A stretch of 64,000 nucleotides of DNA from Armatimonadota bacterium (lineage in GTDB: Bacteria; Armatimonadota; SYMT01): the NCBI GenBank assembly GCA_041690135.1, contig JAWLHY010000006.1, positions 262,337-326,336 on the forward strand. The letters are read 5' to 3'. This document shows positions 18,344 through 22,278 of the stretch, in pieces. Under the pieces are notes generated by a model. It worked only from the letters and a program-made list of their open reading frames with translations. It was not told the DNA's origin and searched no databases. How positions within the stretch are numbered: the first letter of the stretch is position 1; every line of letters starts with the position of its first letter. The translations under genes and the position numbers were made by a program.

Positions 18344-18606
18344 GGCGCGGAGAGGCTGGTAACCACAGGCCGACGCCACGTGGCGTTGCGGCAGCTCTGC
18401 GACCCGGACGCTCACACAGCAATACAACTGTGCCCTAAGACCGACCGTTGGTCAGTTTAGGTGCGAGGGCAAGAATCTGATGGCGCAAGCGACCTGACCC
18501 TTTGGTCGCTGAACAATGAACCGAAACGGCTCCGGTTGCCAACTTCCTTCCTGGCCTCTCGGCAGGTAAGACGTTGGCAACCGGAACTTGAGTGCCAGGG
18601 GACCCC

Positions 18607-20100
18607 TCAGGGCTTTTCCGCCAGGAGAGCCTTAACCTGGTCGAGCACGCCCTGCTCGTTGAAGCCGGCTTCCAGGTAGCGCAGCACGCCTTTCCGGTCG
18701 ATGACTGCGACCGTGGGGAAAGCCTGCACCTGGTAAGCCTGGGAGGCCACATCGTCCAGGTCCATCATGACCGGATAGGTCACCCCGTGCTTGTCCACGA
18801 ACTCGCGGGCCATGCGCATCGGATCGGAGCGCTCACCGGCGTTGACGCCGAACACCATCAAACCCTGCTCGCGATACTTGTTCCAGATCTCTTTTTCCAT
18901 ACGCGGAGCCTCCGCGTTGCAGGGTCCTCACCAGGAGGCGAACCAGTTCAGCAGCACCACCTTACCGCGGTGCTCTGAAAGCTTCGCCTCTTTTCCATCG
19001 AGAGTTTTGAGCTGGACCTCCGGCGCGGGCTTGCCGACCGAAGCGAAGCGCGCGGCCTGCTTTTCGTGCAGGGCCTTCACTTCCGCCAGGGTGAGTTCCC
19101 GATCCCCCTGTTTGTAACGGACCGGAGGATCGAATCGCCCGTCCGCCACCAGGGTGCCCGCGGGGAAATCGACCGTCAACTCTTCCGGGCGGACCGGGAC
19201 GTTGATCTGCGAGCCTTCGATCTTGTAGGTGGAGAGCATGCCCCGGTTCAGGGCCCCGGTGATGTAGATGAGGTGTTCGACGCTCTTCAGGGCAAGGCCG
19301 CTCTTGGTGACCTCGTGCGTGATCTTCAGCTCCTGCCCTCGCGCCACCGGGCCCTGGGGCGTAACGGTATCGCCCGCCATCATCAGCTTCTCCAGGGCAT
19401 AGCGCGGCGCGGTCCGGAGAATCGCGGTCACCCGGTCTTCACCCCGCGTTCCGCTGAGGGTCATCAGACCCTTCGAAGGCTTGGCCGAGGACCAGGTGAT
19501 CCCTTCGAGCAGGTCGGCACCCCGCATCACCAGCAAACGGTCCGGCGCTGTCTGGTCCGGTTGCGGGCCTACCTGGCCCACGCGCTCCAGCTTTTCGGCA
19601 CGGCCAGTCTCCTGGAGCACCCGGCCCAGGTCCTTCGCCACACCGACGAGGTAGTGGGCTTGGGTGTCCCCCTGGGCATCCATCACCGTGACATCACGCT
19701 TCCAATCGTCACCGGAAAAGAGGAGGTATTCGCGCCGCTGGGTACCGACCGGTGCCTTCGCAATGGCCGATCGCACAGTCGCACGCTGGGTGCCCTCCGG
19801 CAGATCGACCTGGCGTTGTGCCACGTGCAGCGAGATGCGACCGCTCTTGACCCGAGCCTCATCCTTCTTGAGTTGAGCTACGGCCTTTTCCGCAAGAGCA
19901 GATCCCTTGGGCGAATTGGCCGATTTAGGCGCCGCGGGCCTGGCGGGCGGTTTGGCAGCGGTTGCCCTGGTGGCGGCAGACTTTTTGGCCGCGGGAGGGG
20001 CCAGGGTAGCCGACACCGGCTGGCACCCCACGCTGGCGGCCGTGATTCCGGCCGCGGCCACCGCTCCGAGAGCACAGCGGATCCGGGTCTTCTCGTTCAT
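18607..20100 (-). CDS. Selenocysteine-containing TlpA/redoxin (UxxC) with a large exported N-terminal domain, 497 aa, Sec at residue 391
   Basis: GKPAPEVQLKTLDGKEAKLSEHRGKVVLLNWFASW-TGA-GPCNAEAPRMEKE continues in frame into ORF 18607-18900 (VTYP..D..AYQVQAFPTVAVIDRKG); hairpin directly 3' of the UGA. Confidence 0.88.
18901..18917 (-). promoter_or_regulatory. Putative bacterial SECIS hairpin
   Basis: mRNA UGA GGACCCUGCA ACGCGGA GGC UCCGCGU: 7-bp stem, G-leading loop, 17 nt between the UGA and the loop. Confidence 0.7.
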
Positions 20101-21527
20101 TGCATCTCCTTATCGAGGAGGCCCCACGCGGCGGCCAGTGCGGCGGCCTGGACCTTCTTGACCGGCGCCCCGGTCGCAGCCGAACATTTACGGCAATCCT
20201 CGTATTCGGGGGTTGCGGTGCGGATCTCACCATCCTGCCGCGCAACCTTCACCCTGACTTCTCCATACGGTGTTTCCACCGCAAGCCATTCCCGTGGGAG
20301 GCAATCCCGGCTCCAGCTCGAATACCGCACCCCAAATGTTGTGGTCTCCTGGAATAGAACCCGGGTGAGTACTTCGCGTTTCGCCGGATCACACAGCACA
20401 CTCAGGGTAAGGGCCGGCCGGTTCTTCTTCATCTGGATCGGCGTCCACCACACGTCCAGCGCCCCGGCGGCGAAAAGCCCCTCCATCACCGGCTCGAACA
20501 ACTGCGGGGACTGATCGTCGATATTCGCCTCGATCAACGTGACCTGCGTGGGCTCGGACTCTACCTCGGCCAGCTCCCCGATCACCACCCGGAGCAGGTT
20601 GGGGAACGGAAAGTTTTTCATCCCTGCCCCGTACCCGATTTCGTGTACGGTGAGCGGCGGCAGGTCCCCGAACTCTGGGGACAACGTACTGGCGAGGGCA
20701 GCCCCGGTGGGGGTGACCAGCTCTCCTTCCACGTCCACGTGGCGTAGGGGGCAGCCTTTGAGTAACTCCATGGTGGCCGGGGGCGGCACCGGCATCATTC
20801 CGTGCGCGCACCTCACGAAGCCATGCCCCGTCGGCAACGGTGAGCACACCACGCGCTCCACTCTTAGCAGGTGCAATGCATAGACGGAGCCCACCACATC
20901 CACAATGCTGTCTACAGCGCCCACTTCGTGGAAATGAACTGCCTCCAGGGTGGACCCGTGGACGGCCGCTTCGGCCTCCGCCAACCGTCGATAGACCCGT
21001 TCGGCATCCCGCTTCACCCCCTCCGGTAACCCACTCGCACGGATCAGGGCCGCTACCTCAGTGAAGGTGCGGGTGCCGGCGTGAGCATTGGGCATTGGGC
21101 ACTCAGACGTTGGGCGATCAGGCGTTGGGGACTGGGGATCGTGATCGTGATCGTGATCGTGATCGGCTTCCCTTCTCTCCTCGCCGTGAGAATGGCTATG
21201 GCCGTGGGAATGCTGCGTGTGCTCGTGGGTGTGGTGCGAGTGTTCGTGGGTGTGGGTGTGGCCGGAGGGTTCTGGGAGGGGGGCGTCGGTGGGTGGGAGG
21301 CGCAGGAGGGGCGCGGAGCCGGCGACCTCGCCGTGGACCAGGACCTCCACATGCGTCGCGGCAATGCCGGATTTCCAGGCGCGCCTGACTTCGAGGTCCC
21401 AGCCGGGCAGGTCGAGGGTGTGCAGGCCTTCCACCAACAACCCCGCATCCACCCCCGCGTCCAGCAGGGCACCCAGCATCATGTCGCCGCTGATTCCACC
21501 GATGCAATCCAGGTAGGCTACTCGCAT
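20097..21527 (-). CDS. larC: Nickel-pincer cofactor biosynthesis nickel insertase LarC
   Basis: YLDCIGGISGDMMLGALLD, His-rich tract, VHFHEVGAVDSIVD, GELVTPTGAA, EANIDD, MKKNRP, ETTTFGVR, PEYEDC. Confidence 0.95.
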   Translation of the reverse strand: MRVAYLDCIGGISGDMMLGALLDAGVDAGLLVEGLHTLDLPGWDLEVRRAWKSGIAATHVEVLVHGEVAGSAPLLRLPPTDAPLPEPSGHTHTHEHSHHTHEHTQHSHGHSHSHGEERREADHDHDHDHDPQSPTPDRPTSECPMPNAHAGTRTFTEVAALIRASGLPEGVKRDAERVYRRLAEAEAAVHGSTLEAVHFHEVGAVDSIVDVVGSVYALHLLRVERVVCSPLPTGHGFVRCAHGMMPVPPPATMELLKGCPLRHVDVEGELVTPTGAALASTLSPEFGDLPPLTVHEIGYGAGMKNFPFPNLLRVVIGELAEVESEPTQVTLIEANIDDQSPQLFEPVMEGLFAAGALDVWWTPIQMKKNRPALTLSVLCDPAKREVLTRVLFQETTTFGVRYSSWSRDCLPREWLAVETPYGEVRVKVARQDGEIRTATPEYEDCRKCSAATGAPVKKVQAAALAAAWGLLDKEMQ

Positions 21528-21528
21528 A

Positions 21529-22278
21529 TTAATCCCGGCAGATGAGGTGCGCCACGTACCCGGCGCCGAAGCCGTTGTCGATGTTGACGACCACTACCCC
21601 CGTCGCGCACGAATTGAGCATGCCCAGAAGCGCGGCCACTCCCTGGAAGCTGGCGCCGTAGCCCACGCTGGTGGGGACGGCGATCACCGGCACTTCCACG
21701 AGGCCACCAACCACGCTGGGCAGAGCGCCCTCCATTCCGGCGACAACCACCAGGGCCTTCGCTTTGACCAGGGCATCCCGTGCGGCGAGAATCCGATGGA
21801 GACCGGCCACTCCGCAGTCGTACAACCGCTCCACCCGACTCCCTAACGCTTCCGCAGTAACAGCGGCTTCCTCCGCCACCGGTTGGTCGGAGGTCCCCGC
21901 GCTCACCACGAGAACATGGGGAGCATCCGCGGGTGGTTCCGGACGAGGCTCCGCTCGCAACTCCACGATCCGTGCGGGGGAATGCAAAACGGCTTCCGGA
22001 AAGATCTCCGCAACTGCGGCAAACTGTTCCGGGGAGATGCGCGTACCCAGGACGAACCCGTGCCGCTCGTAGAGCCGTGCCGCGATGGCGACCACCTGGT
22101 CCGCCGTCTTGCCGGCGCAGTAGATCACCTCGGGCACGCCCTTGCGGAGGTGGCGGTGCGTGTCCACACGCGCGAAACCCAGGTCTTCGTAGGGCGCCCA
22201 CTTGAGCGCTGCCACCGCATCTTCGATGGTGAGGATGCCGGACTGGACGCCGGCCAGGATCTCTCGAATGTTGTCCAC
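21529..22278 (-). CDS. larB: Nickel-pincer cofactor biosynthesis carboxylase/hydrolase LarB
   Basis: [59 protein letters not shown]. Confidence 0.95.

Follow-up and report, generated by a model that had tools for sequence, protein, structure and literature searches.

The window analysed here is a stretch of 64,000 nt from an Armatimonadota bacterium (contig JAWLHY010000006.1 of GenBank assembly GCA_041690135.1), and the gene examined, referred to as the redoxin gene, lies on its minus strand between positions 18607 and 20100. The reading frame of this gene contains an internal TGA codon, and we conclude that the UGA very probably encodes selenocysteine (Sec) in a full-length two-domain protein. 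Judged from its sequence, the gene encodes a selenoprotein of a known kind that has been misannotated, and its two-domain architecture is new. The 497-aa selenoprotein proposed in the original prediction, which was made from the DNA sequence alone, is supported by the Sec machinery in the genome, by the occurrence of Cys and UGA at one position in the homologues, and by a hairpin 3′ of the UGA that is specific to the TGA forms.

The list of open reading frames (ORFs) for the window contains a 390-aa ORF at 18928..20100 (minus strand) that ends in ...GKVVLLNWFASW, i.e. LLNWFASW. The TGA that closes it, at 18928-18930 (minus strand), occupies the place of the first Cys in the WCxxC motif. Past this TGA, the frame stays open for 106 codons (GPCNAEAPRMEKE...AFPT...LLAEKP) and stops at a second TGA, at 18607-18609. 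A downstream 97-aa ORF, listed at 18607..18900, is the remainder of the same redoxin domain. With TGA translated as U, 18607-20100 (minus strand) is a single uninterrupted frame (...NWFASW-U-GPCNAEAPRMEKEIW...QAFPTVAVIDRKG...LLAEKP). The Pfam matches of the read-through protein, to AhpC-TSA (E = 1.3e-24) and Redoxin (E = 1.6e-24), cover residues 355-484 and run across the internal TGA. Both the stop of the 390-aa ORF where the first Cys of WCxxC belongs and the 106-codon continuation through a complete TlpA C-terminus including AFPT, as originally described, are borne out by the minus-strand sequence, and the redoxin match spans the TGA.

A word-indexed search with the read-through protein recovered 48 proteins, and the best 27 of the 48 were aligned with the window protein (alignment A1). 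The column of U391 is Cys in 23 of these 27 homologues (consensus WFASWCGPC). The other four (P0023, P0025, P0026 and P0027; 348-365 aa) stop exactly at ...WFASW (W390) and have no Pfam domain on record, and two of them carry the source name 'hypothetical protein'. The Cys/UGA pair falls at exactly the U391 column, with TGC in two loci (L057 and L023) versus TGA in nine. An exhaustive phmmer search of 1.84 billion proteins with the N-terminal domain alone (N-domain) gave no more than 42 cluster representatives. Twenty-five of the 42 were inspected, the other 17 being mostly fragments of <300 aa together with one 2403-aa protein. Nine of those inspected end at ...WFASW, six have CxxC and ten lack a redox motif, so that Sec is commoner than Cys among the redox-active members of the N-domain family (9 versus 6 of the 25). 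The ten motif-less representatives keep both domains (e.g. ...VWFSSASARGAE...). The expectation that standard pipelines would mis-cut the gene was correct; the 390-aa product is present in the public set as P0002, and nine representatives end in ...WFASW.

Whole-genome and metagenome scans gave nine distinct TGA loci. Seven encode the two-domain protein, namely the window gene, L024 (same family), L025 (same order; identical to L052), L056, L058, L059 and L060, and two (L061 and L062) are short stand-alone TlpA-like genes. In all nine, 104-106 open codons follow the TGA and encode the conserved redoxin C-terminus. The final stop is TAG or TAA in eight loci and TGA in the window gene. Relatives that all carried TGC or TGT with no conserved hairpin, which would have pointed to a recent mutation or an error, were not found; the nine loci have TGA and share the hairpin.

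In bacterial Sec decoding, the selenocysteine insertion sequence (SECIS) is a hairpin that directly follows the UGA and is bound by SelB in complex with GTP and Sec-tRNA(Sec). The hairpin in the redoxin gene has 7 perfect bp and a G-leading loop that starts 17 nt after the UGA, exactly as had been noticed before; the loop is 3 nt long and the hairpin begins 10 nt past the TGA. For bacterial SECIS elements, a 2026 review (PMC13188914; legend to Fig. 2) gives as constraints a loop of 3-9 nt, a stem of 4-16 bp, G in the first two loop positions, a UGA-loop spacing of 16-37 nt and a minimum free energy (MFE) of ≤ -7.5 kcal/mol. The values for the redoxin gene (GGC loop, 7 bp, 17 nt and -11.7 kcal/mol) agree with the constraints in that legend.

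The hairpin is common to all nine TGA loci, with the consensus NCGCGGA-GGC-UCCGCGN and the same 17-nt offset. As it encodes a conserved x-A-E-A-P-R peptide, synonymous sites and compensatory changes provide the only fair test for RNA structure. In an alignment of the nine loci (A4), 91.7 % of hairpin cells are paired, a share that falls to 25-56 % on shifting the 3′ arm by 1-3 columns, and 3 of 8 hairpin pairs show a change on both sides. Neither the covariation score nor the percentage paired was reached by any of 500 shuffles. Codons +5 to +7 are GCG GAG GCU in the nine loci, save for GUG at +5 in L058, and their third positions are invariant in 9/9; codon +8 is CCG in 8/9. The lone CCA at +8, in L058, is compensated by the GUG at +5 (GCG to GUG, Ala to Val, on one arm and CCG to CCA on the other), which converts a C-G pair to U-A. 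The frozen codons include the A/T-ending GCU despite a genome of 65 % G+C, and the third positions of neighbouring invariant Gly, Val and Leu codons vary freely among the TGA loci. The two Cys forms for which DNA was available encode AEAP as GCC GAG GCG CCC (L057) and GCG GAA GCA CCC (L023), and neither has a hairpin. The hairpin is thus restricted to the TGA forms, kept with covariation in 9/9 and absent from 2/2 Cys-form DNAs.

The assembly was scanned for Sec machinery (9.1 Mb, 25 contigs, 97 % complete), and tRNA-Sec, selA, selB and selD are all encoded. A single tRNA-Sec is located at C1:1152265-1152363 (Rfam RF01852, 67.2 bits; reported by ARAGORN as tRNA-SeC with anticodon tca). Matches to selA (481 bits; C1:1149693-1150778) and selD (369.6 bits; C1:1150877-1151803) cluster with it at G000:C1:1149693-1152363 (loci L009, L020 and L001). 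The selB match (383.6 bits, cut-off 242) is at C8:51343-53220, apart from the others. The selD frame has one in-frame TGA (...TVKCGG-U-ASK...) followed by a hairpin, GCGCAG-GUG-CUGCGU, and for this reason SelD also reads as a selenoprotein in this genome.

In three more TlpA-like genes of the genome, the codon for the first redox position is an in-frame TGA, with a hairpin at the same offset (Table 1). TlpA-like TGA genes of other families in the phylum (L027, L028 and L030) carry AUGCGGA-GGC-UCCGCAU or ACGAGGA-GGC-UCCUCGU, with covarying stems. Redoxin matches with one TGA were also numerous in related genomes, and the lineage appears rich in redoxin selenoproteins.

For 36 family members a quick maximum-likelihood tree was computed; the Sec position was masked as X and P0029 served as an arbitrarily chosen outgroup, with the root provisional. 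Sec forms are scattered among Cys forms on this tree; at least six state changes are needed, three of them forced by well-supported branches. As Sec and Cys forms alternate within the family, Sec appears to be a long-standing state that has repeatedly been exchanged with Cys, and not a fresh mutation. One hairpin design is common to all Sec forms, the stand-alone TlpA-like genes included, and because of this shared design repeated Sec to Cys replacement seems more plausible than repeated gain. Among 401 genomes sampled across the phylum, the N-domain was found in nine, namely in the genome studied here, in 6/6 others of its family, in 1/1 of a second family of the same order and in 1/24 of one further family. 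The N-domain is thus confined to one lineage of the phylum.

However, several observations weigh against Sec insertion or limit the evidence for it. The 50 nt from the UGA fold with an MFE of -11.7 kcal/mol versus a shuffle mean of -10.9 (z = -0.30), and 71 of 200 dinucleotide shuffles fold as well or better. As the single-sequence energy is no better than that of shuffles, the case for the hairpin must rest on comparative evidence. The hairpin also overlaps the codons of the conserved AEAPR peptide, so part of its conservation is at the protein level, and the contrast with Cys forms comes from two DNAs only (L057 and L023). An Rfam scan of 18500-20200 at E ≤ 10 returned eight chance-level rows of miRNA/snoRNA type and no SECIS family. 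A crude genome scan for W-[U/C]-x-x-C in open frames gave 22 candidates, to which a hairpin criterion of ≥6 bp, a G-leading loop and 16-37 nt spacing was applied. Such a hairpin follows two of the five U candidates, i.e. the redoxin gene and one in an implausible frame, and none of the five clearly TlpA-like WCxxC paralogues in the genome. However, it also follows 2 of the 17 C candidates, neither of them redoxin-like, and the ≥6-bp threshold missed the selenoprotein paralogue on C19, which has a 5-bp stem. On the tree, the sister of the window protein is a Cys form (P0003, 61 % identity). The sister subfamily that keeps both domains without the redox motif indicates that catalysis is not the sole role of the family and that the scaffold would also have a catalysis-independent role. 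Finally, gene neighbourhood was considered and rejected as a clue to function, as it varies among homologues and suggests no pathway.

The position of P0003 as nearest relative would suit a pseudogene, in which a recent TGC or TGT to TGA mutation has left the gene dead, or an assembly error in a mis-sequenced one. Public reads gave no usable cover of the TGA codon; four runs shared few words with the sequence (0.08-0.15; no RNA run among them), and the pieces from these runs (X1-X4), over 18903-18969, were short and diverged (5-6 differences in 37-50 nt). Mutation or error is nevertheless highly improbable, given that TGA recurs at this codon in eight further loci, drawn from different genomes and metagenomes, each with 104-106 codons of intact frame behind it, that the hairpin peculiar to the TGA forms persists with compensatory changes, and that the genome has the full Sec machinery. 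An open frame alone is compatible with any inserted residue, and the UGA might be read as Cys or Trp without selenium, through near-cognate decoding or a lineage-wide reassignment of UGA. However, TGA is otherwise an ordinary stop here; it closes 28 of the 60 window frames that are open for ≥300 codons, and larC and the redoxin gene itself also end in TGA. The in-frame TGAs lie specifically at redox Cys positions, each with a SECIS-like hairpin, and tRNA-Sec, selA, selB and selD are present. We give very little credence to decoding without selenium.

The UGA might also mostly terminate translation, with the 390-aa LolA-like protein as the functional product and the redoxin read-through as a minor selenium-dependent isoform. 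Bacterial Sec insertion competes with release factor 2 (RF2), and such dual output would be in keeping with this competition, with a redox-dead sister subfamily that retains the LolA-like and thioredoxin (Trx)-fold scaffold without catalysis, and with the truncated form of the database entry (P0002). Yet the truncated product would end in 36 residues of an incomplete Trx fold (residues 355-390), the 104-106 downstream codons are conserved as protein in 9/9 TGA loci, and the redox-dead relatives keep the whole Trx fold and not a truncation. Dual output of this kind is therefore quite unlikely, and insertion of Sec into the full-length protein remains the preferred reading.

Table 1. Features of the redoxin gene and its surroundings, and TlpA-like TGA paralogues elsewhere in the genome
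Feature	Position	Strand	Basis
Probable complete selenoprotein coding sequence (CDS), 497 codons + TGA stop, Sec at codon 391	18607..20100	-	translation with TGA = U
Residues 1-26, putative signal peptide (basic n-region, Ala/Gly-rich h-region) ending SVG-C	20023..20100	-	sequence; export inferred
Residues 27-63, low-complexity Ala/Pro/Lys-rich linker, predicted disordered, length variable in homologues	19912..20022	-	model and alignment
Residues 64-335, LolA/LolB/DUF1329-like open beta-barrel (predicted), no Pfam match	19096..19911	-	predicted structure
Residues 336-352, predicted interdomain linker helix (H338-351, predicted local distance difference test (pLDDT) >90)	19045..19095	-	predicted structure
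Residues 353-497, ResA/TlpA/DsbE-like thioredoxin-fold redoxin domain	18610..19044	-	Pfam, structure matches
UGA, probable Sec391, first position of the U-G-P-C redox motif	18928..18930	-	sequence and homologue alignment
TGC, Cys394, resolving residue of UxxC	18919..18921	-	Cys in 9/9 TGA forms and 2/2 Cys forms
SECIS-like hairpin ACGCGGA-GGC-UCCGCGU, inside codons 395-400 (N-A-E-A-P-R)	18901..18917	-	sequence, folding, covariation
F461-P462-T463, thioredoxin-fold cis-Pro loop ahead of beta-strand E463-467	18712..18720	-	predicted cis-Pro; P and T conserved in full-length rows
larC (nickel insertion protein), upstream neighbour; TGA overlaps redoxin ATG as ATGA	20097..21527	-	ORF and Pfam
Strong stem-loop 22 nt past the stop, 15-bp perfect outer stem and inner stem	18529..18587	-	folding
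TlpA-like TGA paralogue, U-G-P-C, hairpin GCGGA-GGC-UCCGC (5-bp stem)	C19:84753-85268		
TlpA-like TGA paralogue, U-G-P-C, hairpin AUGAGGA-GUA-UCCUCAU	C5:203628-204011		
TlpA-like TGA paralogue, U-G-A-C, hairpin GUGCGGA-GUU-UCCGCAC	C7:221218-221622		

The predicted architecture of the read-through protein is set out in Table 1. A hydrophobic signal-like segment can be read at the N-terminus of the window protein and its homologues. The possible lipobox noted earlier, SVG-C, is present in the window protein but is not conserved. It sits in an insertion shared by none of the 24 other A1 homologues with an N-terminus, and because of this the lipoprotein status of the protein is uncertain. The full-length model, computed from a 28-sequence alignment, has a mean pLDDT of 88.3 and a predicted template modelling score (pTM) of 0.75, with residues 1-52 below a pLDDT of 50. 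In this model, W-U-G-P-C lies at the N-terminus of helix 1, with helix H392-412 beginning directly after U391. The best structure matches for the C-terminal domain are DsbE and ResA (Z 22.2, root mean square deviation (rmsd) 1.4-1.6 over 137-138 residues), and it also matches DipZ (Z 20.0), CcmG (Z 18.6) and TlpA (Z 17.2); Foldseek gave E = 2e-13 with TM scores of 0.88-0.92 normalised to target. The thioredoxin fold of this domain includes the insertions typical of TlpA.

As the redoxin domain dominated the structural search with the full 498-residue model, the N-domain was modelled alone (residues 60-352; pLDDT 94.6). Its top matches are a DUF1329 protein (Z 14.7, 203 aligned residues), Porphyromonas gingivalis LolB (13.9) and Escherichia coli LolA (13.9), and the DUF1329, LolB, LolA and LolA3 matches together span Z 14.7-12.0 with 162-214 aligned residues and rmsd 3.4-4.7. 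Further LolA, LolB and LolA3 chains follow down to Z ~10, and membrane beta-barrels appear only below that. Foldseek agreed, with a probability of 1.00, E = 5.4e-6 for LolA3 and many LolA and LolB chains to E 1e-3. Sequence identity to the structural matches is 6-12 %, and a Pfam search of the N-domain at E ≤ 5, which included the LolA, LolA_like and DUF1329 models, found nothing. The N-domain is thus confidently modelled as a LolA/LolB/DUF1329-like half-barrel. The original prediction was of an uncharacterised beta-rich N-terminal domain of ~350 aa. In place of ~350 aa of unknown fold there is a predicted signal peptide, a disordered linker and a LolA-like domain of ~270 aa.

The redox-dead sister subfamily comprises loci L026, L029 and L033 (in genomes G001, G002 and G003, respectively) and proteins P0065, P0067, P0071, P0074, P0076, P0078, P0080, P0081, P0084 and P0085. 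Identity is 24-29 % over the N-domain, and 25-28 % over the full length for the three loci. They keep the LolA-like and thioredoxin-fold domains and have lost CxxC (e.g. WFSSASARG), though two members keep SxxS or SxxC. In the 2403-aa protein mentioned above (P0068), 14 separate stretches match N-domain query residues 248-282, so that it contains repeats of a short motif that also occurs at the end of the LolA-like domain. The two-domain gene is present as a tandem pair on one short contig (G004:C865; L023 / L075). The first has 30 % identity and the second, a Cys form with CPPC, has 46 %; the contig ends inside the second copy.

Selenoproteins with UxxC of the peroxiredoxin (Prx)-like and thiol-disulfide isomerase-like kinds were described from Sargasso Sea data (Zhang, Fomenko & Gladyshev 2005, PMC1088965), and Prx-like thiol:disulfide oxidoreductase (PF00578) and thiol-disulfide isomerase-like (cd02966, TlpA-like) families are listed in Table 1 of the 2026 review (PMC13188914). 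As far as these families are described in the passages concerned, the window protein resembles them in its AhpC-TSA/Redoxin domain, in having Sec first in UxxC and Cys homologues, and in a small SECIS with a G-containing apical loop just past the UGA. The likeness to cd02966 is by description, and the protein was placed by its Pfam and fold matches. A UxxC TlpA/Prx-like selenoprotein is therefore a published kind, and the window gene fits it on every feature tested. A peroxiredoxin, for which PMC13188914 gives the active-site motif PxxxT/SxxC(U), was rejected, as LLNWFASW precedes U391, with no Pro at -7 and no Thr or Ser at -3.

Like the Cys enzymes ResA, TlpA and CcmG(DsbE) (PDB 2f9s, 3gl3, 1jfu and 1kng), the window protein has the fold (28-31 % identity to ResA), W-C/U-x-x-C at the start of helix 1, a conserved predicted cis-Pro loop and a putative N-terminal export signal, and its genome contains a gene of the DsbD/CcdA type. 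It differs from them in having Sec instead of the nucleophilic Cys and in the additional ~270-aa LolA-like domain. The predicted fold of that domain, an unclosed beta-barrel with helices, including a helical plug, is like that of the LolA/LolB/DUF1329 outer-membrane lipoprotein carrier and sorting proteins (PDB 4z48, 9tpm, 6f3z and 8v1k). However, compared to LolA, the N-domain is larger (~270 versus ~180 aa), is fused to a redoxin, has only 6-12 % identity and has no match to a Pfam LolA family. Envelope proteins in which a TlpA-like domain is combined with a beta domain that is non-catalytic also include Mycobacterium tuberculosis DipZ (C-terminal region; PDB 2hyx/5cyy) and Bacteroidales DUF4369 + AhpC/TSA proteins (PF14289 + PF00578; P0037, P0042 and P0045). 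The extra domains of these proteins are absent from the structural matches of the N-domain, and they use Cys, not Sec.

The UxxC selenoprotein families are described, in the passages available, as redoxin domains, whereas here the redoxin forms the C-terminal third of a 497-aa two-domain protein, and those passages (PMC1088965 and PMC13188914) make no mention of a LolA-like N-terminal domain. Narrow literature searches found no fusion of a LolA-like domain to a thioredoxin or TlpA domain, and a narrow search for literature with both Armatimonadetes and selenocysteine found neither term in any title or abstract. The new parts are the LolA-like fusion and its redox-dead sister subfamily.

Comparative evidence suggests that SelB-GTP-Sec-tRNA(Sec) would bind the 7-bp GGC-loop hairpin, 11-27 nt past the UGA and inside the CDS, and deliver Sec. 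The resulting 497-residue protein would be exported, given its signal-like N-terminus, and may serve as a thiol-disulfide reductase of the cell envelope. The U391 selenolate would attack a substrate disulfide or sulfenic acid, C394 would resolve the intermediate into a selenenylsulfide, and the site could be re-reduced by a membrane electron transporter of the CcdA/DsbD type, of which the genome encodes one. These functional steps are less certain than the Sec decoding. Tentatively, the LolA-like domain might supply recognition of a substrate or partner through its predicted hydrophobic pocket, docking a hydrophobic or lipid-anchored partner. A bolder and rather doubtful version is that the half-barrel forms a pocket for hydrophobic ligands and thereby brings a lipid-anchored or lipidic substrate to the selenolate; the protein would then represent a new class of envelope selenoenzymes whose substrates derive from the membrane. 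Candidate substrates would then be acylated lipoproteins in transit, lipid hydroperoxides or quinone-like oxidants.

The overlap of the larC TGA with the redoxin ATG suggests co-transcription and translational coupling of the two genes. Further upstream is larB (AIRC domain), which with larC covers 20097-22278 (minus strand); both are nickel-pincer cofactor synthesis genes. The larC product has a Ni_insertion match (E = 6e-143) and a long His/Asp-rich insert (HTHTHEHSHHTHEH...DHDHDHDHD). No functional link is evident between larB/larC and an envelope redoxin. In G001 and G002, larC also directly precedes the redox-dead relatives (L026 and L029), but it does not precede the Sec orthologues in G005 or G007, nor is it beside L024, L025 or the metagenome loci. 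Neighbours of homologues elsewhere are unrelated (YtxH, M20 peptidase, a Na/H exchanger-Usp fusion and Bax1-I). The neighbourhood of the window gene showed no connection with cytochrome c maturation or with Sco/CoxB genes, and the DsbD_TM-family gene of the genome (99.5 bits) is unlinked to the redoxin gene. The stem-loop past the stop has an MFE of -49.4 kcal/mol for the 110 nt folded (z -4.31; 0/200 shuffles fold as well). No clear U-run follows it and Rfam returned only chance miRNA-like rows; it is probably the transcript 3′ end or a terminator-like element.

The redoxin gene exposes a clean systematic annotation error, as at least nine public protein clusters are stored as 'hypothetical proteins' of ~350-390 aa that end in ...WFASW, with the catalytic domain lost. 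A selenium-using lineage with several TlpA-like selenoproteins of one SECIS design also provides a ready alignment for a lineage-specific SECIS model. The LolA-like + TlpA architecture, which occurs in Sec, Cys and redox-dead versions, represents an uncharacterised envelope family. If the lipid-pocket reading were true, the redox-dead paralogues beside larC would be pure carriers or regulators. The family is suited to direct tests of what Sec gains over Cys and of what a lipid-carrier fold does beside a redox centre.

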